Positions 5,619 through 40,590 are shown, numbered from the stretch's first letter. The stretch is 64,000 nt of DNA from Desulfobaccales bacterium (GCA_049585595.1 JBAVAG010000023.1:2135-66134); one strand, 5' to 3'. Program-made: numbers and translations. Notes: generated by a model from the letters alone, not told the origin.

Positions 5619-5621
5619 TAC

Positions 5622-5907: not shown

Positions 5908-5915
5908 TTGAAGCA

Positions 5916-6123: not shown

Positions 6124-6215
6124 TGGCGGAGAGAGAGGGATTCGAACCCTCGGTGGAGGTTTCCCCCCACACTCGCTTAGCAGGCGAGCACCTTCGGCCA
6201 CTCGGTCATCTCTCC
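6124..6215 (-). tRNA. tRNA-Ser (anticodon GCU)
   Basis: Reverse complement folds as a class II tRNA. Acceptor GGAGAGA/TCTCTCC + G + CCA; anticodon stem CTCGC/GCGAG with loop CT-GCT-AA; long variable arm; T-loop GGTTCGAATCC. Confidence 0.9.
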
Positions 6216-6228
6216 GGACGTGAAAAGA

Positions 6229-6509: not shown

Positions 6510-6519
6510 CACTCATTCC

Positions 6520-6607
6520 TGGCGGAGGGAGAGAGATTCGAACTCCCGGACCCCTAAAGGTCTGCGGTTTTCAAGACCGCCGCCTTAAGCCGCTCGGCCA
6601 TCCCTCC
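6520..6607 (-). tRNA. tRNA-Ser (anticodon UGA)
   Basis: Reverse complement: acceptor GGAGGGA/TCCCTCC + G + CCA; anticodon stem GCGGT/ACCGC with loop CT-TGA-AA; long variable arm; T-loop AGTTCGAATCT. Confidence 0.9.
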
Positions 6608-7039: not shown

Positions 7040-8422
7040 CTATTTGGGACGGTTATCCACCACCCGCTGGGCCTTGCCTTCGCTGCGAGGCAGGCTGTGG
7101 GGCTCCACCAGTTCCACCCGGGGAGTCACCAGGAGCTCGCTCCTCAGGGCCTCAGTGATGCGTTTCTTCAGGCTGCCCAAGTACTTGAGGTCTTCCTGGA
7201 AAAAATTGGCCTGCACTTCCACCTTGACGTGCAGCAGGTCGCTAAAATCCTCCCGGGTCACCTCCACCACGTAGTGGCTGCCCACTTCCGGCATGGCCAT
7301 CAGCACCCGGTCGATCTGCAGGGGAAAGATATTGACCCCTTTGACGATGAGCATGTCGTCGGTGCGGCCCTGGATGCGGGAAAGACGCCTGCAGGCCCGG
7401 CCGCAGGGGCAGGGGTCCTCTTCATAGGAAGCCAGGTCCCGGGTGCGGTAACGCAGCAGAGGCATACCCTCGCGGCTGAGGTTGGTGAATACCAGCTCCC
7501 CCGTCTCCCCGGGCCCCAGGGGCTTAAGTGTCTGGGGGTCCACCACTTCCAGCAGGAAGGCGTCCTCCCAGAGGTGCATGCCGTTCTGTTCCGGGCATTC
7601 GAAGGCCACCCCCGGGCCGTTCATCTCCGAGAGGCCATAGGAGTTATAGGCCTTGAGGCCATAGGCCGTCTCGATGCGCTGCCGCATATGCTCCGAATGG
7701 GGTTCGGCCCCGATGAAGGCGATCCTCAGGGGAAGATCCCGAGGGTCCAGACCGTGCTCGGCGAAACTTTTCAAAAGATAGAGGGCGAAGCTGGGGATGA
7801 TATGGATGACGGTGGCCCCGAACTGCTGCAGGAGTTGGATCTGGCGGGCGCTGTTTCCGGCGCCGGCCGGAATGGTGAGGGCCCCCAGCCGCTCGCCGCC
7901 GTAGTGGAACCCCAAGCCCCCGGTGAAGAGGCCGTAGCCCATCATATTCTGGAAGACGTCTCCCGGCCGCACCCCGGTCATATACATGGAGCGGGCCACC
8001 AGATCGGCCCAGGTCTCGATATCCCGGCGGGTGTAATAGATCACGGTGGCCTGGCCGGTGGTGCCCGAAGAGGCGTGCAGCCTGATGATTTCCTTTTGGG
8101 GGACGCTTAGCAGGTCCCGGCCCCGGGCCCGCAGGTCCTCCTTCTCGGTGAAGGGAATCCGGCGAATATCGTTAAGGCTCTTGATCGATTCGGCGCTCAC
8201 CCCGGCCTGGGCCAAGCGTTCCCCATAGAAGGGGCTCTTGACCGCCCGGCTGACCGTCTGCCGCAGTCGCTGGAGCTGCAGTTCCTGCAAAGCGGGGCGC
8301 TTGAGGGTCTCAATGGTCCGGTCCCAATACACTGGCTTCTCTCCATCGTCGGGTTGCCGCTGCGCTGGGGCGGGCAGCGCCCACCCTTCCCATTCTGCTT
8401 GGTAAGAGTTGGCGCCCTTCAT
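7040..8422 (-). CDS. paaK: Phenylacetate-CoA ligase family adenylating enzyme (PaaK / F390-synthetase-like)
   Basis: 460 aa. Contains ...YWDRTIETLKRPALQELQLQRLRQTV...IPFTEKEDLR...HASSGTTGQATVIYYTRRDIETWADLVARS..., typical of the PaaK subfamily of ANL enzymes. Confidence 0.8.
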   Translation of the reverse strand: MKGANSYQAEWEGWALPAPAQRQPDDGEKPVYWDRTIETLKRPALQELQLQRLRQTVSRAVKSPFYGERLAQAGVSAESIKSLNDIRRIPFTEKEDLRARGRDLLSVPQKEIIRLHASSGTTGQATVIYYTRRDIETWADLVARSMYMTGVRPGDVFQNMMGYGLFTGGLGFHYGGERLGALTIPAGAGNSARQIQLLQQFGATVIHIIPSFALYLLKSFAEHGLDPRDLPLRIAFIGAEPHSEHMRQRIETAYGLKAYNSYGLSEMNGPGVAFECPEQNGMHLWEDAFLLEVVDPQTLKPLGPGETGELVFTNLSREGMPLLRYRTRDLASYEEDPCPCGRACRRLSRIQGRTDDMLIVKGVNIFPLQIDRVLMAMPEVGSHYVVEVTREDFSDLLHVKVEVQANFFQEDLKYLGSLKKRITEALRSELLVTPRVELVEPHSLPRSEGKAQRVVDNRPK

Positions 8423-18473: not shown

Positions 18474-18716
18474 GGCGTAGGGGCGGGGTTTACCCGCCCT
18501 GGGCGGCGAGACGCCGCCCCTACAGGCCTGCGCTCGTTTGATCTTTTTTCCGGTAGCCTAGGCGTCCCGCCTGTGGGCGTGATAAAGAATTCACGTCACA
18601 CAGGCCCGAGGCTTTTGCCACTTATACCTAACGTTGCCGCTTCCCTGACACGATGGTGCGCAGTGCGCACTCTACAGGAACTTTTGCCCTGGTAGCCGCA
18701 GGCTTTAGCCTGCGCT
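18474..18716. repeat. Cluster of three REP variants
   Basis: ggtagccgcaggcgtaggggcggggtttacccgccctgggcggcgagacgccgcccctacaggcctgcgc; ggtagcctaggcgtcccgcctgtgggcg; ggtagccgcaggctttagcctgcgc. Confidence 0.65.
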
Positions 18717-25875: not shown

Positions 25876-26262
25876 ATGGAAGAAAAAGTGATGAATCTGA
25901 TGCGCCGGGGAGTCATCACCTGCTCGGAGGAGACCACCCTCCAGGAAGTGGCACAAATCATGGTGGCCAATTCCATCCGCTATTGCGTGGTCACCAACCA
26001 AAATAATGAGGTCAAGGGGTTAATTTCCGCCCGGCTCATGCTGAAGGGTTATAAGAAAAATCTGGAGCAGGGCAGAGCCAAGGACATCCTTATGCCCTAT
26101 ACCATAACCATTACCCCCAACTCTTCCTTGAAGGAGGCCGTGGGGGTAATGAGCCAAAAAAGGATCGAGCATCTCATCGTGGTCTCGGACCGTCCCGGCA
26201 GCAAAGCCATCCTGGGATTGGTCCATGCGGAAGATATCATCAGCAAGATGGCAAGGGATTGA
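25876..26262 (+). CDS. CBS-domain pair protein
   Basis: 128 aa. Two CBS motifs (VMNLMRRGVITCSEETTLQEVAQIM...; ILMPYTITITPNSSLKEAVGVMSQKRIEHLIVV). Confidence 0.75.
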   Translation: MEEKVMNLMRRGVITCSEETTLQEVAQIMVANSIRYCVVTNQNNEVKGLISARLMLKGYKKNLEQGRAKDILMPYTITITPNSSLKEAVGVMSQKRIEHLIVVSDRPGSKAILGLVHAEDIISKMARD

Positions 26263-26714
26263 GAAAGATGGAAGAAGGGGTGAAAATTTGCGACCTGATG
26301 CATAGAGGGGTTATCTTTTGTTACCCAGACGACAACTTGAAAGAAATAGCCAAGATGATGCATCTGAACCATTTCCGCTCGGTGGTGGTCCTCCATGAAA
26401 GCGGGGAAGTCTGGGGTCTGGTCTCCATCATGGAGATGATTCACTTTTTTGGCGAGAATTTAGAGCAGCATTGTGCTGAAGATGCCATGCGGCCCTACCG
26501 GATGAGAGTCGACCCCCAATGGCCCATTGAGAAGGCCATCGACCTGATGGTCAAGAATAAGATCGAGCACCTGGTCATCATAGACCCCCATGCCGGCATG
26601 AAGCAACCCATCGGAATTTTGACCAGTTCAGATATTGTGCGTTACATGTCCAGGATCAAAATGGGCCACATTGAGCACCTGCTCAAGCTGGCCCCCAACC
26701 AGGAGTCTTTTTGA
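26259..26714 (+). CDS. CBS-domain pair protein (paralog, 4-nt overlap with the previous gene)
   Basis: 151 aa. Two CBS motifs (ICDLMHRGVIFCYPDDNLKEIAKMM...; AMRPYRMRVDPQWPIEKAIDLMVKNKIEHLVII). Confidence 0.75.
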   Translation: MRKMEEGVKICDLMHRGVIFCYPDDNLKEIAKMMHLNHFRSVVVLHESGEVWGLVSIMEMIHFFGENLEQHCAEDAMRPYRMRVDPQWPIEKAIDLMVKNKIEHLVIIDPHAGMKQPIGILTSSDIVRYMSRIKMGHIEHLLKLAPNQESF

Positions 26715-26802
26715 TGAGTGGAGTTTCCCGCGTTAGGTTAGTTTCCATCAATTCTTGTTGCATAATCCAGATTGAAACCCCTCCTGACCGTGTTGCCTCG
26801 AT

Positions 26803-27600
26803 TCATGGCCTCCGCAGCGGCTCCTTCAGCGCCGCGATAAAATCACCCACCTCTTTGATGAGTTCCTGCCCCTTAAGCCTGGCCACCCGCTGGACGATGG
26901 CGCTGCCCACCACCACGCCGTCCACGTAAGGAGCCAGCCACGCCACCTGCTCCGGGCTGGAGATGCCGAAGCCCACTGCCAGTGGGCATTTCACCAGACT
27001 GCGGACTTCCCGCAAGGCCGCGATCAGCTCAGGCGGCAGCTCCTGCCGCGCCCCGGTGATTCCGGTCACCGAAACATAGTAGAGAAACCCCCGGGTAAGC
27101 CGGCCTATCCTGTGAATGCGCCGCTCCCCGCTGGTGGGTGAGGCCAAAAAGATCGCCGCCACCCCGGCCTGGGCCGCGGCCTGCCGCCAGGGTTCCGCCT
27201 CCTCCGGCGGCAGGTCCGGGATGATGAAGCCGTCCACTCCCAGGGCCGCGGCCTCCCGGGCGGTGCGCTCCAGTCCGTATTGCAGGATGGGATTGTAATA
27301 TCCCATCAGGATCAGAGGTATTTCCGTTTCCCGGCGCAAGGCCCCCGCCGTCTCCAAGACCTCTTTAAGGTGCACCCCCGCTTGCACCGCCCGATTGCTG
27401 GCCGCCTGGATGACGGGGCCGTCCGCCAGAGGGTCGGAAAAGGGAACCCCCAACTCCAGCAGGTCTGCGCCCCTGGCCGCCATCTCCAGGGCCAGGGCCC
27501 GGGTTGTGGCCAAATCCGGGTCGCCGGCGGTGATGAAGGGAATGAGGGCGCCCTCGCCCCTGGCCTTAAGCCTCTTGAACACCCGATCAATCCGCGTCAC
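26803..27600 (-). CDS. trpA: Tryptophan synthase alpha chain
   Basis: [27 protein letters not shown]...[21 protein letters not shown] start chosen at 27600, a 14-nt overlap with the trpB end. The track ORF extends to 27636. Confidence 0.9.
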
Positions 27601-28780
27601 CGGACACCTCCAGGGCCTGGGCCACGGCCTCGACATCCTTGTCGCCGCGGCCCGAGAGATTGACGATAATCAGGTCATCCGGGGAATATTCGGGCGCCAG
27701 CCGCTCAAGATAGGCCACCGCGTGGGAGCTCTCCAGGGCCGGGAGTATCCCCTCGGTCCGGGACAGCAGTCGAAAACCCGCCAGGGCCTCGCTATCGCTC
27801 ACCGCTACATATTCGGCCCTTCCTGAATCCTTGAAATAGGAGTGCTCCGGGCCGACTCCGGGGTAATCGAGCCCCGGCGCCAGCGAATGGGCTTCCTGGA
27901 TGTTGCCCCAGGGATCCTGCAGGAGGTAACTGAAGGCGCCGTGCAGCACCCCCCGGCTCCCGGCCACCAGGGTGGCGGAGTGCTGTCCGCTGCCCAGGCC
28001 GTGGCCCGCAGCCTCCACCCCCACAAAGCGCACCACGTCGTCCTCAAAGGCGTGAAACAGCCCCATGGCGTTGCTGCCGCCGCCCACGCAGGCCACCAGG
28101 CATTGGGGCAGGCGGCCGGTGAGCCGGTGCAACTGGGCCTTGGCCTCCCGGCCGATGACCGCCTGGAAGTCCCGGACGATCATGGGATAAGGGTGCGGCC
28201 CGCCCACGGAGCCCAGGACATAGTGGGTGTGGCGCACGTTGGTGACCCAATCCCGGATGGCGTCGTTCATGGCATCCTTCAGGGTGCGGCTGCCGGACTC
28301 CACCGGGATCACCCGGGAGCCCAGGAGTCGCATGCGGATCACGTTGAGCCGCTGGCGCCGGATATCCTCCGTGCCCATGTAGATGTCGCACTCCAGCCCC
28401 AGCAGGGCGGCCACCGTGGCGGTGGCCACCCCGTGCTGGCCGGCCCCGGTTTCGGCAATAATCCTTTTCTTACCCATGCGGCGGGCCAGCAGCCCTTGGC
28501 CCAGGGTGTTGTTGATCTTGTGGGCCCCGGTATGGGCCAGGTCCTCCCGCTTGAGGTAAATCTGGGGGCCTCCCAGGGCTTCGGTCAGATGCCGGGCGTG
28601 GTATAAGGGCGTGGGCCGGCCCACGTAATCCTTAAGATACCAGGATAACTCCTCCCGAAATTGCCGTTCCCTGCTAATCCGATGATAGGCCGCCTCCAAC
28701 TCCAAAAGGGCCGGCATCAGGGTCTCCGGGACAAACCGGCCCCCATACCGCCCATATCTGCCATGCCGATCCGGTAACAA
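27587..28780 (-). CDS. trpB: Tryptophan synthase beta chain
   Basis: 397 aa. [16 protein letters not shown]..., PLP-lysine region [24 protein letters not shown]. Confidence 0.95.
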
Positions 28781-28801
28781 TTAAACCTCCTTTGTTCGCA
28801 C

Positions 28802-28900
28802 CAGTAATCAGTAATCAGTAATCAGTGGCCAGTGTCTTTATTAAGAATAAATGTGCTTTCTCGGCGATAAACCACCGCTCACTGCTTACTGCTCACTATC
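28802..28900. repeat. Heptamer-array element (inverted arrays around a 40-bp AT-rich core)
   Basis: (CAGTAAT)x3 CAGTGGC CAGTG ... core ... CG CTCACTG CTTACTG CTCACTA. Located just upstream of the trpB start. Confidence 0.7.
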
Positions 28901-29011
28901 GACCCTCCACCAGTGTCACCACCGCGCCGGCGCAGGCTTTGTTTGACGGACGATCATTATTCCTCTCGGCGCAGGCTAAAGCCTGCGGCTACATTGAATG
29001 CCGCCACCAAA

Positions 29012-29115
29012 CCCTGACCCCTGATCCCTGACCCTTCACCCCTGCCTTGTCTGCTCACTGCTCACTGCTCACTGACCACTGACTACTGGCTACTGACTAC
29101 TGGCTACTGGCTACT
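29012..29115. repeat. Two adjacent heptamer arrays
   Basis: CCCTGAC CCCTGAT CCCTGAC CCTTCAC CCCTGCC (29012-29046), then (CTCACTG)x3 ACCACTG ACTACTG GCTACTG ACTACTG GCTACTG GCTAC (29051-29115). The last units overlap the trpF 3' end. Confidence 0.75.
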
Positions 29116-29717
29116 TCGTCAAAAAAGTCCCTCAGCTTTTCCGGGTCCTTCTTCCCCGGGGCGGCCTCCACCCCGCTGGCCACGTCCACCGCCTGGGGCC
29201 GGGCCACCTCGATGGCCTGGGCCACGTTAGCCGGGGTCAGACCGCCGGCCAGGACGATGGGGCCGAATTCCTGCGCCCGCCGGGCCAGTCTCCAGTCGAA
29301 GGTCTCCCCGGTGCCTCCCGCCTGCCCGGATTTGTAGGTGTCCAGGAGAAAGGCCTGCACCGCGTCCCGGTACGCTGCCAGGGCCCCCAGGGAGCTTTCG
29401 TTTTCGATCCGGAATCCCTTCAGCACCCGTCGTCCCAGGCTCAAGCAGTACTCCGGCGATTCCCGGCCATGAAGCTGGACCCAATCCAGGCCCAACCGGG
29501 CGGCCAGTTCCCGCACTACTGCCGCCTCTTCATCGACGAAGACCCCGACACTCAGGACCAGGGGCGGCAGTTGCCGGATGATCTCCCGGGCCGCCCCCGG
29601 CGCCACCCGGCGCGGGCTGGCGGGATGAAAGATGAACCCCAGGGCGTCCGCTCCCAACTCCGACGCCAGCCGGGCGTCTTCAGGATTGGTGATGCCGCAG
29701 ATTTTGATGCGAACCAT
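29097..29717 (-). CDS. trpF: Phosphoribosylanthranilate isomerase
   Basis: 206 aa. MVRIKICGITNPEDARLASELGADALGFIF... Confidence 0.9.
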   Translation of the reverse strand: MVRIKICGITNPEDARLASELGADALGFIFHPASPRRVAPGAAREIIRQLPPLVLSVGVFVDEEAAVVRELAARLGLDWVQLHGRESPEYCLSLGRRVLKGFRIENESSLGALAAYRDAVQAFLLDTYKSGQAGGTGETFDWRLARRAQEFGPIVLAGGLTPANVAQAIEVARPQAVDVASGVEAAPGKKDPEKLRDFFDEVASSQ

Positions 29718-29734
29718 GCTTTTAGGACCCGGCG

Positions 29735-29798
29735 GCCACAGGCCGCCCTAGAGAATCAGCTCCGCCGCTTATACCTCATAGGGCGGGCTGTGCCCGCC
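29735..29798. repeat. Composite REP (GGCGGCCACAGGYCGCCCTAGA...CATAGGGCGGGCTGTGCCCGCC)
   Basis: Second copy at 45789-45857 has the same two hairpin modules in the same order. Confidence 0.65.
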
Positions 29799-29806
29799 GC
29801 CCTGTT

Positions 29807-30592
29807 TTAGCCGGCGTTCCCCAGGAACTCCCTCAACTTGGCCCCGGGGTCGCTCTCAGTCACCAGCGCCTCCCCGATGAGAAAGGCGTGGATGCCCGCG
29901 GCCTGGTATCTTTCGACCTCGGCCCGGGTCTTCAGACCCGAAGCGGCCACCAGGGTCACCCCCGGCGGGGCCAAGCGCGCCAGCTCCAACGCCCGGTCCG
30001 GGAATACCTTAAGGGTGTGCAGGTCCCGGGAATTGATCCCGATAACCCTGGCCCCCACGTTCAGGGCCGCGGCCATCTCCCCGGCGGTGTGCACCTCCAC
30101 CAGAGCCTCCAACCCGAGGGAACGGGTCAAGGACAGCAAGGCCCGGAGCCTCTCGGGGCTCAGAAGGCTGACGATCAGCAGCAGGGCGTCGGCCCCCAGG
30201 GCGGCGCTCTGGTAAACCTGAATCTCCTCCAAAATAAAATCCTTGCGCAGAATGGGAAGCCGGATCAGGGGTCGCAATCTCGGGATGAATTCGGGATCGC
30301 CTTTAAAAAAAGAGACCTCGGTGAGCACGGAGATGGCCGCCGCCCCGTTCTCCTGATAGCGTAGGGCCAGCTCCCCCAGGTCCCAGTGCATGGCAAACTC
30401 CCCTTTGCCAGGCGATGCCCGCTTTACTTCGGCGATGATAGCCGGACCGGGTCGGCCCGCAAGGGCTGCTTGCAGGCTGAAACACGCCGGCCGCCGGCCA
30501 ATCGCCGCCCGGAATTGCTCCATCAGCCCCGCCTCCCGCAAGCGCTGGCTCTCGGCCTCCTTCATCTCGACGATTTTTGCCAGAAAATCCAT
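29807..30592 (-). CDS. trpC: Indole-3-glycerol-phosphate synthase
   Basis: 261 aa. ...IIAEVKRASPGKG...ISVLTEVSFFKGD...LPILRKDFILEEIQVYQS... Confidence 0.9.
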   Translation of the reverse strand: MDFLAKIVEMKEAESQRLREAGLMEQFRAAIGRRPACFSLQAALAGRPGPAIIAEVKRASPGKGEFAMHWDLGELALRYQENGAAAISVLTEVSFFKGDPEFIPRLRPLIRLPILRKDFILEEIQVYQSAALGADALLLIVSLLSPERLRALLSLTRSLGLEALVEVHTAGEMAAALNVGARVIGINSRDLHTLKVFPDRALELARLAPPGVTLVAASGLKTRAEVERYQAAGIHAFLIGEALVTESDPGAKLREFLGNAG

Positions 30593-30600
30593 ATTTTTAA

Positions 30601-30684
30601 GCCATCAGCCTTCAGCAGTCAGCCTTCAGCCTGAAAATCGAGGTACTTTACTGATCACTGATCGCTGGTCACTGATTACTGATC
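30601..30684. repeat. Two heptamer arrays between trpD and trpC
   Basis: GCCATCA GCCTTCA GCAGTCA GCCTTCA GCCTGAA (30601-30636) and ACTGATC ACTGATC GCTGGTC ACTGATT ACTGATC (30649-30684). The second overlaps the trpD stop. Confidence 0.7.
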
Positions 30685-31748
30685 GCCGCCTCAAAGCTCC
30701 TGCTCTTGGCAATCAAGTCCTCCAGTTTCTGCAGGGCCTTCCCGGAGCGAATAGTCTGCCGGGCGAGTTCGAGACCCTGGGGAAAATCCGGGCTCAACCC
30801 CGCGGCTATGTATGCCGCGGCCGCGTTCAATGCCACCATATCTTCCCGGGCCCCCCCCTCCCCTGCCAGCACGGCGCGCACAATGCGGGCGTTTTCAAAG
30901 ACGTCGCCGCCCTTGATCTCCGCCAGGGTGGCCCGTTTAAGGCCGAAATCCTCCGGCGCGATGTCATAGGTGCGCACCTTGCCCTCCCGGAGTTGGCTCA
31001 CCCGGGTGGGGCCGACGATGCTGATTTCGTCATAGGAGCCTTCGCCATAGACCACAAAGGCGCTCTTGCCCCCCAGCTTCCCCAGGACGCAAGCCAGGGG
31101 CTCGGTGAGCCGGGCCTCGTAAACCCCCAGCACCTGGACGTTGGCGTCGGCCGGATTGGTGAGCGGCCCCAGGATATTGAAGATGGTGCGGATGCCGATC
31201 TCCCGCCGGGGACCGATGGCGTAGCGCATGCTCCCATGGAGTTGCGGGGCGAAGAGAAAGCCGATGCCCACTTCCAGGATGCACCAGGCCACCTGCTCCG
31301 AGGTGAGGGAGAGATTGATCCCCAGGGCCTCGATGACGTCCGCGGATCCGCAGCGGGAGGAGACTGCCCGGTTGCCGTGTTTGGCTACCTTGAGCCCGGC
31401 CCCGGCCACTACGAAGGCGGTGGTGGTGGAGACATTGAAGGTGGAAGTGGCGTCGCCGCCGGTGCCGCAGGTATCCACCACCGTCTCCCGATCCACGTTG
31501 ATTTCGTCCCGGTCCAGGCCGATGAGGCCACCGGAAATGGGAATGCGCGTGGCCTGGGTCCGCATCACCCGGGCCGCCGCGGTGATCTCCGCCACCGTCT
31601 CCCCCTTCATCCTAAGCGCGGTGATGAAGGAGCCGATCTGGGCCTCGGTGGCCTCGCCGCTCATGATAATCTCCATGGCCCGGGTCATCTCCGCTTCATT
31701 CAAGTCGTGCCCGTGAACCACCCGATAAATGGCTTCTTTCAGCATCAT
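30669..31748 (-). CDS. trpD: Anthranilate phosphoribosyltransferase
   Basis: Start set at [51 protein letters not shown] (360 codons). Motifs DTCGTGGD and KHGNRAVSS. The 523-aa track ORF is an upstream over-extension into the neighbouring gene. Confidence 0.9.
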
Positions 31749-31765
31749 TATAGTCCTGTAAGGGG

Positions 31766-33793
31766 CTATTTTATCCTGGTATAAATGGCCGCCAGGGCGA
31801 TGGGCGCCAGGACCCAACCCATGATTTTTTCCAGGTGCCAGTAAGCCCAGATATAGTTCGAGGGGGTCCCCGGCTGGAAAGCCCTGGCCGCCCCTAAATT
31901 GACTCCGGGCAGGAAGCGGTCCAGACTTACGGCCAACCCATTCCAAAAGGGCTGGCCGGAGGCGTGGAAGGCCAGCCAGCCCAGCAGCACCAGGGCCAGG
32001 GCTGGCCACAAGGTGCGGGCGGGTTTGCGGCCAAAGCCCGCCGGCCAATCCCAAAAAATCTTGGTAAGCCACCTGCCCGGGTGCCACCAGGGGAACTTTG
32101 CCAATTCCCGGCGCTTGCCGGTGATAAAGGCCTGGTCGGCCCATTTCCTGAGGCCGCCGCGCTGAAAAAAGGCGTCCAATTGCGAGTAATTCTGGGCGTT
32201 GAAGCGGCTGCGCCCCAGCCAATCCAGCAATTCCTGCCATTTTTCCGCTTTATGGGGCTCTCTTTTGGTGGTGAGGCTCTTATAGGTCAGCCCATCGAGA
32301 TAGAGTTTCAGATCGCGGTCTTGCGGGGCCGGCCATTCAGGTTCTACGAGTTGGAGATGGTAAAGCGAGGCGTCGCGCCAATCGGCCTCATCCTTGATGG
32401 CCAATCTCACCAACTCAACCGGGCCTTTAACCTCCAAACTCCTCGCCTCAAATCTTTTTACCTCAATATTTCTAATGGTTAATCGATGGGCGATCCTGGT
32501 GCGGTTCAGGACAATCTCATTTAGCGGCAGACCGCCAACGGAAAGGGGGTGCAGGCCTCGAATTACCAGGTCGGTTAGCTGCCCCTCCTTCAACACCAGG
32601 CCGCCGAAGAAAATGGTGCCGATGAAGAAGGCCCCCCGGCCTACCTTGAGGCCGGAGAAAATCGTGCTTTCACTCTTGAAGATGGCCTGGTCGGCATTGA
32701 AGACCCCGCCAACTTCGAGCCGGGAAAAATCGGCCGGACCCATAAACAAGGTCTTGAAGGTTTTAAGCCTGCCGAAAGGATCGAGGTAGAAATTGTCCTT
32801 CACCGCCATTCCGGTGAAATACGCCGACCCGGCGAAGATGGCGCCATTGGCGTGGAAACCGTGGCCCACCTGCACGGCCTCGAAATCACTGATGTGGCCT
32901 AAAAATTGTGCCTTATCCGCCGAAAACTCCCCACCAATCTGGGCGCCGCGAAAATTGACGCCGCTGCGAAAGGTGGCAGCCAGTTGGTGGCCGGATTTTT
33001 CCAAGGGATCCAGGTACAAATCCCCCGCTATCCCGACCAGGACAAAGCTCACCAGCCCGTGGAAATCGCAGCCCTGAAACGAGGCGTCCCGGCCCACCTG
33101 CATCCGCTGAAAATTGGCTTTATGATTGGGCGCCAGAAACCTAGCCCCCTGTGCCCCGAAGTCGCCTTTGATGACGGCGCTGCCAAAATCCGCCGGCCCG
33201 TGAAATTCCGCCCCATCGAAAAAAGCACCTTCACCCACATGCAGCCCGCTAAAGTTGGCCACCTGATCTTCTGCCAGGAACTTGGCCCCTTCCGCAGCGA
33301 ATTGGCCGTCGATGTCCGCGGCAGTGAGATTTACCATTCCGCTAAACACCGTGTCTCTACAAAACAGGCTTACCGCCAGTTTTAAGCGGTGAAAATCTAC
33401 CCCGTTCAAAAAATGTGAACCGTTTAATGATAAATATTCATCAAAACGAGCATCTCTAATGCTAAACCATTCTTTGAAGATACAAGCGTGTAAAGCCACC
33501 GCGACGGTAACCTCGCCATTCTCCAGGTCCAGCGGCTCCGCGATAACCGCACTGCTAATCCGCACCCCCAGGCGGTGCACCCGAACCCCCGGCAAATCCC
33601 CGGTCAACATCTCTTCCAGAAACCCGGCCCGCAGGCGCCGCTCTGCGGCCGCGTCCCCGAACTCCTGCTTCAGGTCGGCGATCTCCCCGGCGGCCGCCTG
33701 CTTCAGGACAAACTGCTCCTGCGGGCTGAGGGGCGAACCGTCACTTAGGGCAATTTCCTTTTTCGGGTCCATGGGGATTTTCGCTTTTTCCAA
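31766..33793 (-). CDS. Large membrane protein with degenerate pentapeptide-type repeats
   Basis: 675 aa. Central region of repeated F/L-x-G-A-x-F units ([46 protein letters not shown]...). C-terminal TM segments ([15 protein letters not shown]; [15 protein letters not shown]). Stop lies 17 nt upstream of the trpD ATG. Confidence 0.75.
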
Positions 33794-33872
33794 ATTCTCG
33801 ATCTTTAATATGGCAACGTTTCTTTCCGCCCCCCCTCACCCCACCCCTCTCCCGCGGTAGAGGCCTAGTTTC

Positions 33873-33932
33873 GGTGGGGCAGGCGTCCCTGCCTGCCTGC
33901 CTTGGTTGGCGGGCACGGAGGCCCGCCCCACC
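33873..33932. repeat. REP variant (GGTGGGGCAGGCGTCCCTGCC...GGCGGGCACGGAGGCCCGCCCCACC)
   Basis: GC palindromes with outer GGTGGGGC/GCCCCACC arms. Flanked by CCCCTCTCCC..GGGGAGAGGG hairpins (33826-33850, 33958-34005). Confidence 0.55.
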
Positions 33933-34087
33933 GATGGGAGTATTGCGGGAGATCCTTCCCTATCCCCTCTCCCCTAATGGGGGAGAGGGTTAGAGTGAGG
34001 GGAAATTAATCACTCACGCGTTTAAATGAATACGCTACCGGATTTACGAAATCGAGTGCTCACCAACTCACGTCCGGCGCCTAACCG

Positions 34088-34672
34088 TTACTCGCGATCT
34101 TCCCTGCCGATTTCGAAGGGCGCCGCGGCTCGCTCGGCCAAGACCCTGGCGCCCGCGGCCAGTCCGGCCTCCAGGGCCCGCTCGTTCATTTCCCGGCTGG
34201 CGGCCGGCACCCGGGCCAGGACCGCGGCTTTCAAACCTTCCCGGGAAACCGCGCCGGTGATGGCCGCCAGGGCCCCCAAGGCCACGATGTTGGCCATCAA
34301 TTCCCTGCCGGCCTCCCGGGCCATGCGGGTAAAGGGAATGGCCAGCGCCCCCGACTCCGGCACCTCTCGCACCAGGTCGGCGTCCACCAGCAGCACCCCT
34401 CCCTCTTTCAGGTCACCCAGAAAAACGTCCAGAGACTTCTGGTTCAGGGCGAGCAGCACGTCGGGCTGGATGGCCTTGGGGTAATCGATCTCCGCATCAC
34501 TGATGACCACCTCCGCCTTGGAGGCGCCCCCCCGGGCCTCGGGGCCATAACTCTGGGTCTGGCAGACAAACTTGCCGTCATAAATCCCGGCGGCCTCCGC
34601 CAGGATCACCCCTGCCAGCACCAACCCCTGGCCACCGGAGCCGGCCAGGCGAATCTCAAAGCGCATTGCCAT
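34088..34672 (-). CDS. 2-oxoacid:ferredoxin oxidoreductase, gamma subunit
   Basis: 194 aa. EIRLAGSGGQGLVLAGVILAEAA...QSYGPEARGGASKAEVVIS. Confidence 0.85.
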   Translation of the reverse strand: MAMRFEIRLAGSGGQGLVLAGVILAEAAGIYDGKFVCQTQSYGPEARGGASKAEVVISDAEIDYPKAIQPDVLLALNQKSLDVFLGDLKEGGVLLVDADLVREVPESGALAIPFTRMAREAGRELMANIVALGALAAITGAVSREGLKAAVLARVPAASREMNERALEAGLAAGARVLAERAAAPFEIGREDRE

Positions 34673-34682
34673 AATTTGGGCT

Positions 34683-34752
34683 CAAAGGTCGAGGTTATCA
34701 GTTCAAGGTTCAAAGGTTTGAGGTTTGAGTTTAGAGGGTTGCGGTTTAGGCT
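34683..34752. repeat. Heptamer array (NNAGGTT)n spanning the gamma/beta junction
   Basis: CAAAGGT CGAGGTT ATCAGTT CAAGGTT CAAAGGTT TGAGGTT TGAGTTT AGAGGGT TGCGGTT TAGGC. Covers the last ~16 codons and the stop of the beta-subunit gene. Confidence 0.65.
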
Positions 34753-35590
34753 TCGCTCCCAAGGCCGCCCGGGCCGCGACCTGGATGCGCCGGTATTCCT
34801 CGGTATAGATGGGCAGCTCGCGGTCCACCAGGACGCCGATGGTGATCTTGCCCGCCAGTTCCTCCGGGCTCATGGTGGCGGCCTTCTCCACCCGCACCGC
34901 CATCTCCTTCTGAGCCCGCATCATCTCCACCGGGCCGCCCTTCTTGTTCTTCGAGCCGAACTGGGTGTGGCAATGGCTGATGACCTCCACCACGGCAAAG
35001 CCCCCCTTCCTGAGGGCCTGTTCCATCAACCGGTCCAACAGGGTGACGTGGTACACCGTGCCCCGGCCCACCATGGCGGCGCCCGCCGTCACCGCCATCT
35101 CGCTGATGGAGAAGGCGTGTTCGATATGCCCGTATTGAGCAGTGGCCGCCCAGGCCCCGTAAGGGGTGGTGGGAGAAAATTGCCCGCCGGTCATGCCATA
35201 GATATTGTTGTTGATGATAATGGCCGTCAGGTCCAGATTGCGCCGGGCCGCATGGATGAAATGATTGCCGCCGATGGCGGTGGCGTCGCCGTCCCCCATG
35301 ACTACGATGACCTTGAGCTTGGGGTTGGCCAGCTTGACGCCGGTGGCAAAGGTGAGGGCCCGGCCGTGCGTGGTGTGCAGGGTATTGAAATCGACGTACA
35401 CGCTTATGCGCCCGGAACAGCCGATGCCCGAAACCAGGACGATCTCATCCTTGGTGTAGCCAATAGCGTCGATGGCCCGGATCATGGATCCCAGGACGAT
35501 GCCGTTGCCGCAGCCCGGACACCAGACGTGGGGGAACCTCTTCTCGTGGCGCAGGTATTTGTGAATCAGTTTGGTGACATCTTCGGCCAT
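34703..35590 (-). CDS. 2-oxoacid:ferredoxin oxidoreductase, beta (TPP-binding) subunit
   Basis: 295 aa. WCPGCGNGIVLG..., GIGCSGR, TPP motif VVMGDGDATAIGGNHFIHAARRN. Confidence 0.9.
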   Translation of the reverse strand: MAEDVTKLIHKYLRHEKRFPHVWCPGCGNGIVLGSMIRAIDAIGYTKDEIVLVSGIGCSGRISVYVDFNTLHTTHGRALTFATGVKLANPKLKVIVVMGDGDATAIGGNHFIHAARRNLDLTAIIINNNIYGMTGGQFSPTTPYGAWAATAQYGHIEHAFSISEMAVTAGAAMVGRGTVYHVTLLDRLMEQALRKGGFAVVEVISHCHTQFGSKNKKGGPVEMMRAQKEMAVRVEKAATMSPEELAGKITIGVLVDRELPIYTEEYRRIQVAARAALGAKPKPQPSKLKPQTFEP

Positions 35591-35660
35591 TTTCAGCTCT
35601 CCGCGAAGGCGAGGGTAGCACAGTTGGTGTAGCCCAAAATTTCCTTTTTTCCCGCTACCC

Positions 35661-35856
35661 TAATTTTGCCCTTTAATTTTTGCCTTTTTACTTTTTACTT
35701 TTGCCTTTTTGGGCATTGCGCACCATTTCGTAGGGGCGGGGTTTCCCCGCCCAGGGCGGCGAGACGCCGCCCTTACAACACAGGCTTCCAGCCTGTGATC
35801 GGGTCGCCCGGGCGCTCAGCTTTTTTTCTGGTGGCCGCAGGCTTTAGCCTGCGCTG
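35661..35856. repeat. Repeat-filled spacer between the alpha and beta subunit genes (T-rich heptamers plus three REP modules)
   Basis: TTTTGCC CTTTAAT TTTTGCC TTTTTAC TTTTTAC TTTTGCC TTTTTGG, followed by gtaggggcggggtttccccgcccagggcggcgagacgccgcccttac, cacaggcttccagcctgtgatcgggtcgccc and ggtggccgcaggctttagcctgcgc. Confidence 0.7.
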
Positions 35857-35868
35857 TAAGCAGTCCTC

Positions 35869-37011
35869 TTACATTTTCATGAGTCTATCCATAATCTCAT
35901 CCGGCGTAATCAAATTGCCGTCGATCCGATTCAAGGCCTCCACCCGGGTCAGGCCCTGGTTGATTCTTTTTACCTCCCGGGACATCTGGCCCATATTGAG
36001 CTCTGGCACCAGGGCGGCCCGCACCTGGCGCAGCAGCGGCTCCAACTGCCGCCGGGGAAAGGGCCAGAGGGTGATGAGTTGCAGCAGTCCGGCCTTGATC
36101 CCCCGCTCCCGGGCCTCGGCCACCGCCCGCCGGGCGCTGCGAGCCACCGAGCCGTAGGCCACCACCAGGATCTCGGCGTCCGCCGTCTGCACCTCTTTCA
36201 CCATCTGGATGTCATGGAAGTGTTGGGTGATCTTGCGGAACAGGCGGTTCAAAAAAGGCACGATCTCGTCGGGGCGTTCTGTGGGAAAACCCCGCACGTC
36301 ATGGATCAGACCGGTAACGTGGTAACGGTAGCCGTCCCCGAAGATGCCCATGGGGGGCACCCCGCTGGCGGTGTCGGCATACGGAAGGTACCATTCCGGC
36401 GGCATGTCCGGGCGCACCCGGTCCACTACCTCCAGGGGCGTCTCCGGCGGCAGCAGGAGCTTCTCCCGGGTGTGCCCAACCACTTCATCGCTCAAAATGA
36501 TCACCGGGGTCCGGTATTTTTCCGCCAGCGAGAAGGCCTTCACCGTGAGCTCGAAGCATTCCTGGGTGGTGGAGACCGCCAGGACGATGATGGGGTGGTC
36601 CCCGTGGGTCCCCCAGCGGGCCTGCTGCACGTCCCCCTGGCTGACGTGGGTGGCGAGACCCGTGGAAGGCCCGCCCCTCATAACGTTGACGATAACCGCG
36701 GGCACCTCGGCCACGCAGGCGAACCCCAGGTTCTCCTGCATCAGGGAAAACCCCGGGCCGCTGGTGGCGGTCATGGCCTTGGCCCCGGCCAGGGAGGCGC
36801 CGATAACCGCTCCCATGGAGGCGATTTCATCCTCCATCTGAATAAAGGTGCCGTCCACCGCGGGCAGGCGGTAGGACATGACTTCGCTGATCTCCGTGGC
36901 CGGGGTGATGGGATAGCCGGCAAAAAAACGGCAACCGGCATAGAGGGCGCCCTCCACCATGGCTTCGTTGCCTTGGAGCAGTCTGGCTTTCCCGGGGGTC
37001 CCGCCATTCAT
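35869..37011 (-). CDS. 2-oxoacid:ferredoxin oxidoreductase, alpha subunit
   Basis: Start set at MNGGTPGKARLLQGNEAMVEGALYAGCRFFAGYPITPATE (381 codons, SD GGAGAG), after the stop of the delta gene. Contains ...TATSGPGFSLMQE... The track ORF over-extends by 29 codons. Confidence 0.9.
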   Translation of the reverse strand: MNGGTPGKARLLQGNEAMVEGALYAGCRFFAGYPITPATEISEVMSYRLPAVDGTFIQMEDEIASMGAVIGASLAGAKAMTATSGPGFSLMQENLGFACVAEVPAVIVNVMRGGPSTGLATHVSQGDVQQARWGTHGDHPIIVLAVSTTQECFELTVKAFSLAEKYRTPVIILSDEVVGHTREKLLLPPETPLEVVDRVRPDMPPEWYLPYADTASGVPPMGIFGDGYRYHVTGLIHDVRGFPTERPDEIVPFLNRLFRKITQHFHDIQMVKEVQTADAEILVVAYGSVARSARRAVAEARERGIKAGLLQLITLWPFPRRQLEPLLRQVRAALVPELNMGQMSREVKRINQGLTRVEALNRIDGNLITPDEIMDRLMKM

Positions 37012-37039
37012 GGTTTCTCTCCCATCCAGTTTGCCAATG

Positions 37040-37351
37040 TCATTCCGTCTCCTCCGCTGCCGGTTCTTTGGCAACCACCTCCTTGACGCAGATGGCAAAG
37101 TCCGGACAATGCAGTTCGCACCAGCGGCAGCCGTTGCAGCGCTCAGGGCTCTTCACCCGCGGCGCCCCCTGGGCGTCCATCTCCAGGCACTGCCGGGGGC
37201 AAAAGGCGGCGCAGATGCCGCAGGACTTGCACCAGTCCCGAAAGATGTCGATTTCAAACTGCGGCTGGGGCTTTTCGGAAGGTTCCGGTCCGGCCGGCCC
37301 CTTCTTAGACTCTAAGGTCTGATTTGCCTCGAATTTCGTATCCTTATCCAT
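37040..37351 (-). CDS. 2-oxoacid:ferredoxin oxidoreductase, delta (2x[4Fe-4S] ferredoxin) subunit
   Basis: 103 aa. CKSCGICAAFCP ... CNGCRWCELHCP dicluster motifs. Confidence 0.85.
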   Translation of the reverse strand: MDKDTKFEANQTLESKKGPAGPEPSEKPQPQFEIDIFRDWCKSCGICAAFCPRQCLEMDAQGAPRVKSPERCNGCRWCELHCPDFAICVKEVVAKEPAAEETE

Positions 37352-37547
37352 AGTCAGTAGCCAGTAGTCAGTAATCAGTGAGCAGTGAGCAGTGAGCAGT
37401 AAAACCTAACTTCTGTCAGTAATCGCAAAATGATTAGACATTTGGATCATTTTCATTAATTATCACATTCACTCAGGCAAAGAAAAAAACGATTGAGTTG
37501 AAAAGCCTACCGATCACCGACTACTGGCTACTGACTACTGGCTACTG
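37352..37547. repeat. Heptamer-bounded element E1 (downstream flank of trpG)
   Basis: Seven CAGT-type heptamers (AGTCAGT AGCCAGT AGTCAGT AATCAGT GAGCAGT x3; 37352-37400), a core, then the inverted array ACTACTG GCTACTG ACTACTG GCTACTG (to 37547). Core 37433-37504 is homologous to 38177-38249. Confidence 0.75.
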
Positions 37548-37549
37548 CT

Positions 37550-38122
37550 TCAGCCCCGGCTGCGCTTCCTGAAATTGCGCAGCAGATTGATGCCTTCGGC
37601 GGTCATGATGGACTCGGGATGAAACTGCACTCCGAAGATGGCGTATTCCCGGTGGCGCAGCCCCATGATCTCCCCCACCGCAGTCTGGGCCGAAACTTCG
37701 AGACAGGCGGGCAAAGTCTCCCGCTCCACGATGAGGGAATGGTAACGGGTGGCCTCAAAGGGAGAGGGAACGCCCTGGAAGAGATCCCGTCCGTCATGAT
37801 AAATGAGGGAGGTCTTGCCGTGCATCAGCCGGGTGGAGCGGATGACCCGGCCCCCGAAGGCCGCGCCCAGGGCCTGGTGTCCCAGGCACACTCCCAGGAT
37901 GGGAATCTGTCCGGCAAAATGGAGGATGGCCGCCATGGAAATCCCCGCTTCGGTGGGAGAGCAAGGTCCTGGAGAGATTACCAGCCGGTCCGGCTGGACC
38001 GCCTCAATTCCCTTAAGGTCTATCTGGTCATTGCGAAAGACCCGGACCTCCTCTCCCAACTGGCCGAAATACTGCACCAGATTATAGGTGAAAGAATCAT
38101 AGTTATCTATCATTACTAACAT
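37550..38122 (-). CDS. trpG: Anthranilate synthase component II (glutamine amidotransferase)
   Basis: 190 aa. [19 protein letters not shown]..., catalytic GVCLGHQ, ...FGVQFHPES. Confidence 0.9.
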
Positions 38123-38130
38123 ATCTGCCT

Positions 38131-38284
38131 CAGTGAGCAGTGAGCAGTGAGCAGTGAGCAGAAAAATCTAAAACCAATTAGACATTGAGATCATTTTGAT
38201 TACTTATCACATTCCCTTAAGCAATGAATAGTAACGATTGAGCTGAAAACCATACTGCTCACTGCTTACTGCTTACTGCTCACT
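38131..38284. repeat. Heptamer-bounded element E2 (upstream flank of trpG)
   Basis: (CAGTGAG)x4 at 38131-38158, a core, then CTGCTCA CTGCTTA CTGCTTA CTGCTCACT at 38255-38284 (the inverted complement). Same orientation and core as E1. Confidence 0.75.
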
Positions 38285-38289
38285 CCCCG

Positions 38290-39771
<1,482 letters not shown>

Positions 39772-39896
39772 GTCTGCTCCGTCTATTGATCTAAAATTTA
39801 ATCCAGATAACCGCCTTTAACCACAATTAAAATAATTATTTTTGTGTTTTGCCTGACGGTGCTCAATGAACGTTGCCAGCGGCGGTTGGCCGCGGT

Positions 39897-39928
39897 AAAA
39901 AAAAACCGCGTCCCTAATGGGCCACGGC
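39897..39928 (-). terminator. Second hairpin + U9 tract in the trpE leader (possible second terminator)
   Basis: Minus-strand RNA GCCGUGGCCCauuaGGGACGCGG followed by UUUUUUUUU. The alternative hairpin CGCGGU-U(n)-ACCGCG uses the same 3' arm. Confidence 0.4.
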
Positions 39929-39940
39929 TTTTATAAAGCG

Positions 39941-39974
39941 CCAAAAAACGGGGCCCCTCTCGCGAGGGGCCCCC
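39941..39974 (-). terminator. trp attenuator (intrinsic terminator)
   Basis: Minus-strand RNA GGGGCCCCUC-GCGA-GAGGGGCCCC followed by GUUUUUUGG. A perfect 10-bp GC stem about 30 nt after the leader-peptide stop. Confidence 0.8.
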
Positions 39975-40003
39975 AAATATCTCTCACTGGCTGGAGACGC
40001 ACC

Positions 40004-40060
40004 TCACGAAACCGCCATCACCCGCCACCAGCACCAGTTTTTTGAATCGAAATTTTTCAT
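40004..40060 (-). CDS. trpL: trp operon leader peptide (18 aa, MKNFDSKNWCWWRVMAVS)
   Basis: ATG at 40060 and TGA at 40006-40004. Three Trp codons within four positions (W9-C10-W11-W12). Sits between the promoter and the attenuator, upstream of trpE. Below the 60-aa cutoff of the ORF track. Confidence 0.8.
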   Translation of the reverse strand: MKNFDSKNWCWWRVMAVS

Positions 40061-40078
40061 CTTCTTTTCTCTGAAAAG

Positions 40079-40107
40079 TGTATATTCAAATCACTGATTG
40101 TTGTCAA
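40079..40107 (-). promoter_or_regulatory. Sigma70-type promoter of the trp operon
   Basis: Minus strand: TTGACA (40107-40102), 17 nt spacer, TATACA (40084-40079). The leader ATG lies 19 nt downstream of the -10. Confidence 0.6.
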
Positions 40108-40158
40108 TAGGTTTCCTGAAACGGAATCGAATTACCTTCAATAATCGGGAGAATCAGA

Positions 40159-40386
40159 TTGAAATTTCTCATTACCATATCCCAGGATGAAGACGGCATG
40201 TATATCGCCGAATGCCCTGCCATCCCGGGCTGCGTCAGCCAGGGACGGACAGAAGTTGAGGCGGAAAGAAACATTAATGAGGCGATCAAGGAATGCCTGG
40301 CCGTGCGCGCTGAAAAAGGATTACCGTTGACGGTCCCTACCCGCCAGATCGAGGTTGAGGTGGAATGGGGTCAATCCCCTTACTGA
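40159..40386 (+). CDS. hicB: HicB-family antitoxin (UPF0150 / RNase H-like fold)
   Basis: 75 aa. MKFLITISQDEDGMYIAECPAIPGCVSQGRTEVEAERNINEAIKECL is the typical HicB N-domain. TTG start with GGGAGA SD. Confidence 0.75.
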   Translation: MKFLITISQDEDGMYIAECPAIPGCVSQGRTEVEAERNINEAIKECLAVRAEKGLPLTVPTRQIEVEVEWGQSPY

Positions 40387-40590
40387 GGCCCAGGGAAGTT
40401 GTCAAAGTCTTTGAACGACTCGGCTGGGAAATAGCCCGCCTGCGCGGCAGCCACATCATCCTGATCAAGCCCGGCCATCTCGCCACCCCTTTCCATCCCC
40501 GATCATCAATTTGTCGCCCGGGGCACCTTGCGCAGCCTCCTGGCCAAGAGCGGAGTATCTTTGGAAGAACTTTTGAATAATTTAGATTGA
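40365..40590 (+). pseudogene. hicA: HicA-family mRNA-interferase toxin, disrupted by a +1 frame change in a C-run
   Basis: Frame 0 gives ...REVVKVFERLGWEIARLRGSHIILIKPGHLAT, then nonsense. Frame +1 from about 40489 gives LSIPDHQFVARGTLRSLLAKSGVSLEELLNNLD* (canonical HicA C-terminus, stop at 40588-40590). The junction is at CCACCCC (40484-40490). Confidence 0.65.

Follow-up and report, generated by a model that had tools for sequence, protein, structure and literature searches.

In the trpL-type attenuator of E. coli, a short leader open reading frame (ORF) with adjacent Trp codons, a 1:2 hairpin over these codons and a G+C-rich terminator with a U-run act together, and systems are known in which such an attenuator lies before trpE and the trp genes are co-transcribed with unrelated genes. 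Four-subunit 2-oxoacid:ferredoxin oxidoreductases (OFORs) have been described from H. pylori, whose OorDABC complex was shown to convert 2-oxoglutarate to succinyl-CoA and is encoded by a free-standing operon of the tricarboxylic acid cycle (PDB 8YS5; PMC12307629), and from archaea, as the KGOR/KOR enzymes of Thermococcales and Methanothermobacter and the 2-keto acid:ferredoxin oxidoreductase of P. furiosus (alpha subunit, PDB 1YD7/4WBX). Both kinds of system meet in the 64,000-nucleotide stretch of DNA from a Desulfobaccales bacterium analyzed here (GCA_049585595.1 JBAVAG010000023.1:2135-66134; hereafter, the window). The locus resembles the known composite trp systems in its trpL-type attenuator before trpE and in what appear to be shared transcription units; it differs from them in that a complete four-gene operon, korDABC, apparently of central metabolism, lies inside a canonical trpEGDCFBA operon, downstream of the attenuator, and that passenger genes occur at nearly every junction. 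Our literature search found no report of an OFOR within a trp operon, nor of such an arrangement in Desulfobacca.

Taken jointly, the evidence makes it probable that korDABC encodes the ordinary 2-oxoglutarate:ferredoxin oxidoreductase (KOR) of this lineage, ancestrally inserted into the trp operon, and that the cluster is a composite read-through operon carrying the gene of a pentapeptide-repeat protein (PRP) as a passenger. KorDABC/OorDABC enzymes interconvert succinyl-CoA, CO2 and reduced ferredoxin with 2-oxoglutarate and CoA, and the enzyme would thus not belong to the tryptophan pathway. The kor operon would have entered the trp operon, between trpG and trpD, before the sampled Desulfobaccales diverged, and would have been inherited since. 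Ahead of trpE would stand a single canonical promoter and a Trp attenuator of the ribosome-mediated kind (..NWCWW..), from where transcription would read through trpEG into korDABC and, in the window, on via the PRP gene into trpDCFBA, with each gene junction acting as a 'slot' that repeatedly accepted co-directional passengers, repeat elements included.

The cluster is a single co-directional minus-strand array from ~40107 to 26803, in the order promoter, leader, terminators, trpE, trpG, OFOR delta, alpha, beta and gamma, PRP, trpD, trpC, trpF, trpB and trpA (Table 1); based on ORFs, Pfam and NCBIfam, the gene order, strand and coordinates agree with those of the initial annotation. Plus-strand ORFs in the interval, for which no family-library scan was made, are long shadow ORFs facing Pfam-supported minus-strand genes. 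Judged by its domains and motifs, the enzyme belongs to the four-subunit OFOR superfamily. The alpha protein matched PF01855 (232 bits) and PF17147 (91 bits), beta matched PF02775 (108 bits), and gamma, a separate gene, matched PF01558 (129 bits). The beta translation contains GDGDATAIGGNH...NNNIYGMTGGQ and the Cys motifs WCPGCG, GIGCSGR and SHCHT, which parallel Cys19, 22, 53 and 202 of H. pylori OorB. Delta is likewise a separate gene, whose product is matched by Fer4 families and carries two CxxCxxCxxxCP motifs, CKSCGICAAFCP and CNGCRWCELHCP. The four-subunit architecture, the GDGD...GGNH thiamine pyrophosphate (TPP) motif of beta and the two [4Fe-4S] motifs of delta, as annotated initially, were therefore all recovered. 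The enzyme shares with H. pylori OorDABC its four separate subunits, the gene order D-A-B-C, the two [4Fe-4S] motifs of delta, and the TPP site and proximal-cluster Cys ligands of beta, whereas the Desulfobaccales kor genes are embedded in a trp operon. It also has the alpha-beta-gamma-delta architecture of the archaeal KGOR/KOR enzymes, from which it differs as a bacterial orthologue group with another genomic context.

Among the OFOR models of NCBIfam, only the generic alpha model PRK08659 exceeded its NCBI curated cut-off. Scores for the KOR/Oor equivalog models were 406 bits for alpha (PRK09627, cut-off 579), 315.7 for beta (PRK09628, KOR beta; cut-off 364) and 44 for delta (OorD, cut-off 93); for gamma, the best model was PRK08537 with 197.5 bits (cut-off 235), and PRK08441 (OorC) reached 100 (cut-off 216). 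All models for indolepyruvate (IOR), pyruvate (POR), VOR, oxalate and phenylglyoxylate enzymes scored far lower than KOR/Oor. IOR model TIGR03336 gave 76 bits for alpha and 43 bits for beta against a cut-off of 651, TIGR03334 gave 46 bits against 206, and VorB (PRK07119) gave 320 bits against 399, below the KOR-type models (583, 406). The closest solved structure for alpha is the alpha subunit of the P. furiosus 2-keto acid:ferredoxin oxidoreductase (1yd7, 1e-118, full length), and H. pylori OorDABC was matched by alpha (OorA, 8ys5, 4e-81) and beta (OorB, 8ys5_C, 2.5e-78).

To place the enzyme among its relatives, OFOR alpha was used to scan one genome per species, the best 80 loci were kept, each with 10-kb flanks, and all twelve window proteins were mapped onto them. 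The stand-alone OFOR that is widespread in Thermodesulfobacteriota proved to be an orthologue, with an alpha identity of 65-81%. Clustering of the flanking ORFs of the 80 loci revealed no widely conserved OFOR neighbour; the only recurrent functional neighbours were sucC/sucD, found at seven loci (L012, L024, L025, L056, L062, L072 and L073), directly adjacent and co-directional in five, and scattered over the tree around the trp-linked clade. In a neighbour-joining tree of alpha and beta, this clade is sister to Syntrophobacter with similar branch lengths and no long branch. The 112 alpha and 77 beta columns (189 in total) with a conservation of at least 95% among 60 orthologues without trp linkage were all unchanged in the nine trp-linked sequences. 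The trp-linked OFOR is thus most likely an unmodified orthologue of the stand-alone enzyme, for which 2-oxoglutarate/succinyl-CoA is the best-supported reaction pair. In anaerobes without 2-oxoglutarate dehydrogenase, KOR serves an anabolic role, glutamate synthesis via the reductive branch.

Protein searches placed the window (G+C ~62%) in the Desulfobaccales, among relatives of Desulfobacca acetoxidans. Within the best 80 loci, trp genes surround the OFOR in the three Desulfobaccales loci only, and six further Desulfobaccales contigs (alpha 84-99% identical) were added beyond the 80, giving with the window a set of ten loci (the window, L001-L003, L081, L082 and L086-L089). The order trpEG-korDABC-trpD... 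is kept in nine of them, while L003 shows trpE-trpG-korDABC before its contig ends. The insertion is therefore not unique to this genome; a neighbourhood check, which the initial annotation had proposed, found the OFOR inside the trp cluster in Desulfobaccales, in none of the other loci, and with a variable PRP. No trp gene was found within 10 kb of the OFOR at any of the 77 non-Desulfobaccales loci, which include Syntrophobacter (alpha 78-81%), Desulfobulbales, Desulfovibrionales, Chloroflexota, Clostridia and others; their alpha proteins are 54-81% identical, and most carry all four OFOR subunit genes, with loci at contig edges lacking one. Desulfobaccales alpha proteins are 83-100% identical. 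On this sampling, the kor insertion is ancestral to the sampled Desulfobaccales, an order of sulfate-reducing bacteria, and specific to them. The flanks are equally syntenic across relatives, with genes for MiaB-like, rhomboid, PCC and inositol phosphatase proteins upstream and RibD downstream, so that simple inheritance suffices to explain the persistence of the trp-kor order.

Upstream of trpE, the window has a canonical trp promoter, and the same position is occupied by canonical sites, TTGAC(A/T)-17/18-TATAnT, in L001-L003 and by similar ones, TTGAC(C/A)-17/18-TATA(A/T)(A/T), in L082, L088 and L089. By its layout, a leader ORF with Trp codons and an intrinsic terminator before trpE, the leader corresponds to a Trp attenuator of the ribosome-mediated type. 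The NWCWW motif of the leader peptide is kept in nine of the ten loci; L087 showed no leader ORF in the 520 nt scanned. The first terminator hairpin, GGGGCCCC...GGGGCCCC followed by a T run, is conserved in all ten, its G+C-rich stem lying at 39973-39950 of the window in the terminator scan. The consensus fold of four leaders comprised a 1:2 hairpin across the Trp codons and two terminators. A candidate anti-terminator, formed if GUGAGGUGCG at the leader stop codon pairs with the terminator's 5' arm, was found by eye only, and the consensus fold did not predict this pairing. The W-C-W-W leader with its invariant Cys codon (UGC) within the Trp run and the two tandem terminator-like hairpins set this leader apart from the E. 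coli trpL type. The four aligned leaders share TGGTGCTGGTGG nucleotide for nucleotide, and the remaining five encode W-C-W-W as well; RNA pairing, more than coding, may account for the nucleotide identity.

Candidate sigma-70-like sites were scored out of 12, a scan that is meaningful here because the trp promoters of this lineage are canonical or near-canonical. On the operon strand, 14.4 kb of the window contained two sites scoring at least 10/12, namely the trp promoter and one 13 nt inside trpG that is encoded by conserved codons. No internal gap of the window cluster contained a site reaching 9/12, and in the window and the seven relatives scanned no sigma-70-like site was found ahead of korD, back to trpG or to the Na/Ca-exchanger gene where one is inserted. 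The terminator scan found no internal intrinsic terminator in the window cluster, the attenuator alone being convincing, and neither the window nor its relatives have a second Trp-rich leader ORF before korD, PRP or trpD. Rfam returned no RNA family at gathering or E<=1 in 26000-40400, and a T-box, a riboswitch and a second regulatory leader in the cluster are thereby ruled out. Independent promoters and terminators on both sides of the insertion are thus not recognizable in the window gaps. Several junctions are tight. The PRP stop codon (31768-31766) is followed exactly 17 nt on by the trpD ATG at 31748, as first reported; in L089 the trpG-korD, korA-korB and PRP-trpD junctions measure 47, 65 and 17 nt; and in L081, L086 and L087 the Na/Ca-exchanger gene begins 2-13 nt past trpG. 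On these sequence features, transcription that starts at the attenuated trp promoter is likely to continue into korDABC. The earlier suggestion of co-transcription gains plausibility from the lack of an internal terminator or sigma-70-like site, the tight junctions and the recurrence of the arrangement; the downstream half is less clear.

The passengers fit the same pattern. Those supported by Pfam are the Na/Ca exchanger, a CBS pair, DUF7225, PRP, an acyltransferase-3 and a bAvd-like gene, representing ~9 independent insertions, all co-directional, as expected if the downstream genes depend on upstream transcription. The korA-korB junction is an insertion hot-spot (L081 11262-12365, L086 11194-13975, L087 11155-11544, L088 11325-11705, window 35591-35868), where the co-directional inserts vary by genome and consist of repeats, small ORFs, DUF7225 or a pair of CBS-domain genes. 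Other slots hold the Na/Ca exchanger after trpG, the acyltransferase-3 at trpC-trpF (L002) and the bAvd/23S-rRNA-IVP-like gene at trpF-trpB (L082).

Several spacers of the window are filled with repeats. The trpE-trpG spacer folds into a ~30-bp stem (z = -5.1) that reaches from the trpE stop to the trpG start, and its AT-rich core of ~100 nt occurs twice in the window; L089 (8790-9034) has a copy at trpE-trpG only. This L089 copy is diverged, and the 88 loci fetched before L089 contained no exact match to the core. The trpG-korD copy is absent from the 47-nt spacer of L089, which indicates a recent insertion, a duplication or transposition resembling that of a miniature inverted-repeat transposable element. 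Inspection by eye of this spacer in six genomes showed nothing in common and no conserved internal promoter; the spacers are filled with lineage-specific repeats.

Tandem arrays of 7-nt units (CAGTGAG, CAGTAGC, ACTGATT and similar) set in at a stop codon or within it, and an inverted counterpart stands immediately ahead of the following start codon. Such arrays were located at 28781-29115, 30593-30690, 34714-34747, 35664-35710, 37352-37402, 37509-37547, 38125-38161 and 38254-38298, and most heptamer arrays of the 64-kb window fall within the trp-kor cluster. Both spacers that were folded gave stems of ~30 bp with z = -5 to -6. In form, the arrays resemble the cyanobacterial STRR repeats. The stems could be RNase III-type processing or insulation elements.

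As one hypothesis on the substrate of the enzyme, the initial annotation suggested an arylpyruvate OFOR that carboxylates indoleacetyl-CoA or oxidizes indolepyruvate, as a tryptophan salvage or degradation branch under Trp attenuation. The genes do lie inside an attenuator-controlled trp operon throughout the order, and two further points speak for such an enzyme and also weigh against an ordinary KOR: the KOR/Oor equivalog models, although the best or second-best matches, stay under their cut-offs for all four subunits, beta, gamma and delta included; and arylpyruvate specificity is known among the four-subunit enzymes of the VOR cluster, as in the VOR-related HpdDEFG (PMC13285125), so that the architecture alone decides nothing on the substrate. 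A second KOR elsewhere in the genome would likewise weigh against an ordinary KOR, as the trp-linked copy could then be a specialized paralogue. IorAB and HpdDEFG belong to the same TPP/[4Fe-4S] superfamily, and HpdDEFG likewise has four subunits. An IorA/IorB identity was rejected, however, since the scores are far under threshold and the four separate subunits do not correspond to a fused IorA of ~600 aa plus IorB. An HpdDEFG-type enzyme was rejected as well, since VorB scored below the KOR models, to which the enzyme is closer than to the VOR cluster, and since no Pta/Ack, ligase, kinase or HPAD gene lies nearby at the ten loci. None of the ten clusters contains an aminotransferase, arylacetate-CoA ligase or Pta/Ack gene. 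The PaaK-type ligase gene at 7040-8422, already described as present and unlinked, stands next to a DNA ligase gene and lacks iorAB alongside, and was rejected as evidence for an aryl-acid route for lack of an adjoining IOR partner. In addition, the orthologues are never trp-linked and repeatedly sucCD-linked, and the trp-linked clade has neither a changed conserved column nor a long branch. With family models, OorDABC and the sucCD-linked orthologues all grouping the enzyme with 2-oxoglutarate-type OFORs, the arylpyruvate claim is, by the criterion that the initial annotation itself set, refuted in silico, pending enzymology, and we regard it as highly improbable.

The placement of a KOR here could instead be adaptive, with attenuation that senses Trp-tRNA co-regulating 2-oxoglutarate (through glutamate and glutamine, the amide donor of TrpEG) or ferredoxin turnover. 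In its favor, korDABC always follows trpEG directly, or follows the Na/Ca exchanger, with no recognizable promoter or terminator between trpEG and kor in any locus; the trpG-kor junction survived while neighbouring slots turned over; and a separate trpD promoter in PRP-less genomes would leave trpEG and kor as the attenuated unit. Nevertheless, we found no evident metabolic logic for a KOR within a trp operon. Anthranilate synthase returns one glutamate per glutamine used and so creates no net 2-oxoglutarate demand, and we know of no tryptophan-pathway step that needs ferredoxin, succinyl-CoA or 2-oxoglutarate. The linkage is absent from the 77 other sampled loci and the flanking synteny is equally conserved, for which inheritance suffices, and an adaptive placement therefore seems unlikely. 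Alternatively, the operon may be apparent only, with korDABC and PRP-trpDCFBA on their own unrecognized promoters, heptamer stems that process or insulate the transcript, and only trpEG under Trp regulation. Split trp regulons with attenuation of trpE(G) alone exist in Sinorhizobium (PMC6614838), the window cluster has gaps of 198, 278 and 294 nt, and the stems described above span the trpE-trpG and trpG-korD spacers. The PRP-less L081 (~14020), L086 (~15752) and L087 (~13574) moreover share TTGCCA-17-GATAAT 116-117 nt upstream of trpD, probably an internal trpDCFBA promoter of this subclade; at least there, the downstream half is not purely dependent on read-through, although no equivalent was recognizable before PRP in the window. 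This site counts against a single read-through operon, as do the oddity of a housekeeping enzyme behind a Trp attenuator and the scan itself, which would miss other sigma types and weak promoters; the gene order, kept within one bacterial order, may also be plain inheritance. Against separate transcription units stand the lack of sites of at least 9/12 in the internal gaps despite canonical trp promoters, the lack of an internal intrinsic terminator, and spacers that are unconserved between relatives and nearly absent in L089, which leaves this explanation improbable and the ancestral insertion of an ordinary KOR into a read-through operon as the preferred one.

Table 1 Features of the trp-kor cluster in the window
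Feature	Position	Strand	Evidence and remarks
trp promoter TTGACA-17-TATACA	40079-40107	-	sole sigma-70-like site of at least 9/12 in the non-coding parts of the cluster
Leader peptide ORF MKNFDSKNWCWWRVMAVS*, 18 codons, three Trp codons	~40004-40060	-	conserved NWCWW
Attenuator	39896-39973	-	hairpin GGGGCCCCTC-GCGA-GAGGGGCCCC and T-run (39973-39940), then second hairpin and T9 (~39931-39896)
trpE, anthranilate synthase component I	38290-39771	-	TIGR00564 558 bits, above cut-off 518; Pfam Chorismate_bind, Anth_synt_I_N
trpE-trpG spacer: heptamer array, AT-rich core, inverted heptamer array	38123-38289	-	same element in L089
trpG, glutamine amidotransferase component II	37550-38122	-	TIGR00566 261 bits, above cut-off 121; Pfam GATase
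trpG-korD spacer, second copy of heptamer-flanked element	37352-37549	-	82% identical to 38123-38289; fold z = -6.0
OFOR delta (KorD/OorD-like, two [4Fe-4S] motifs)	37040-37351	-	Fer4 families; best NCBIfam OorD and OGOR_delta, both under cut-off
OFOR alpha (KorA-like), 380 aa	35869-37011	-	PRK08659 582.6 bits, above cut-off 411; Pfam POR_N, PFOR_II; true start ATG 37011, not TTG 37098
korA-korB spacer, hairpin and heptamer repeats	35591-35868	-	65 nt in L089; inserted ORFs in L081, L086, L087, L088
OFOR beta (KorB-like, TPP-binding, proximal-cluster Cys ligands)	34703-35590	-	Pfam TPP_enzyme_C; best NCBIfam PRK09628
OFOR gamma (KorC-like)	34088-34672	-	Pfam POR; best NCBIfam PRK08537
korC-PRP spacer, G+C-rich hairpin repeats	33773-34087	-	no Trp-rich leader ORF, sigma-70-like site or terminator
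PRP, beta-helix and C-terminal helical/transmembrane domain	31766-33793, probable start ATG 33772	-	Pfam Pentapeptide_3 54 bits
trpD, anthranilate phosphoribosyltransferase	30669-31748	-	TIGR01245 403 bits, above cut-off 199
trpC, indole-3-glycerol-phosphate synthase	29807-30592	-	ORF and translation; tblastn orthologues in L001, L002; Pfam IGPS in relatives' equivalent
trpF, phosphoribosylanthranilate isomerase	29097-29717	-	Pfam PRAI in relatives' equivalent gene
trpB, tryptophan synthase beta	27587-28780	-	Pfam PALP in relatives' equivalent gene
trpA, tryptophan synthase alpha	26803-27636	-	Pfam Trp_syntA in relatives' equivalent gene; probable start GTG ~27600, overlapping the trpB end

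The PRP gene between korC and trpD behaves differently from the OFOR genes. Homologues almost always keep the ATG at 33772, the probable start, from which PRP has 668 aa, as do the homologues P0003 and P0004, compared with 675 aa from 33793. The protein matched PF13576 (Pentapeptide_3) with 54.3 bits against a gathering score of 27, and nothing in NCBIfam, PADLOC or the PDB by sequence or profile. Its repeat is a beta-helix coil of ~23 residues in which no classical A(D/N)LXX register can be made out. An AlphaFold2 model built with 37 homologues (pLDDT 89, pTM 0.79) consists of a small N-terminal helical domain, a long beta-helix (~77-410), a beta-rich part (405-508) and a C-terminal helical domain (519-674). 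The C-terminal domain has one clear hydrophobic segment (595-613) and a final long amphipathic or hydrophobic helix, about two hydrophobic helices being predicted, and there is no signal peptide; in the model, PRP looks like a tail-anchored cytoplasmic beta-helix. The initial name, a membrane pentapeptide-repeat protein, thus holds for the Pentapeptide_3 match and the C-terminal hydrophobic helices, but the repeat is not a classical pentapeptide and the start is shorter. A likeness to HalA, found with Foldseek against the PDB, was too weak to be trusted (E 4e-3, TM 0.19/0.34), the other hits being generic beta-helices. Trp makes up 2.5% of PRP and is concentrated in the C-terminal membrane domain, and it was judged to be a membrane-interface feature instead of a regulatory clue.

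The number of PRP copies varies among the relatives, with none in L081, L086 and L087, one in the window, L002, L088 and L089, and two in L001 and L082. The length varies as well: PRP has 668 aa in the window and 833 aa in L089 (12946-15447, P0001), whose KorA is 99% identical. The ~165 extra residues in L089 correspond to about seven extra ~23-residue coils, while the C-terminal 420 residues are ~97% identical, and coil number evidently changes quickly, judging from this pair. Homologues with 30-32% identity sit in unrelated contexts. From these comparisons we concluded that PRP is a variable, dispensable passenger with no specific tryptophan role. A protein called in a close relative, P0038 (691 aa), has both TrpD domains in addition to Pentapeptide_3, and over 47% of the window PRP the two are 95% identical; the 17-nt PRP-trpD junction was probably read through or frameshifted in the gene call, although a real fusion is possible. 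The window encodes a second, unrelated pentapeptide-repeat protein on the plus strand at 331-1887 (518 aa; classical PF00805, 166 bits), coded for by a region of 15/30-nt tandem repeats.

Elsewhere in the window, two tRNA genes (6127-6607) enclose a spacer of ~300 nt flanked by inverted heptamer arrays, CTGTTTT / GAAAACA (arms 6230-6270 and 6482-6511). This spacer holds GTAGGGGCGG...CCGCCCCTAC palindromes, found again at 18477-18523 and, as a related form, at 35740-35800. Tandem riboswitch aptamers of the cyclic di-GMP-I type were detected on the minus strand at 5540-5620 and 5829-5908 (Rfam RF01051, 39.6 bits; RF03167, 64.5 bits), upstream of a 300-aa gene (4468-5370) with an ice-binding-like adhesive domain.

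The arrangement is best described as a lineage-specific composite operon that opens no new tryptophan pathway, with the OFOR as a fixed, ancient passenger and PRP as a variable one. Gene-neighbourhood methods would wrongly assign a 'tryptophan-related' function to both. The heptamer-stem spacers and gene slots may together make the operon a capture site for passenger genes. With KOR behind the Trp attenuator, charged tRNA-Trp might gate the interconversion of 2-oxoglutarate and succinyl-CoA together with anthranilate synthase throughout the order, a consequence that we consider doubtful and put forward tentatively. Should read-through hold, an essential operon of central metabolism would be expressed from an amino-acid attenuator in the Desulfobaccales, a natural system in which to study how a composite operon copes with ill-matched regulation and how genes are captured at operon junctions.

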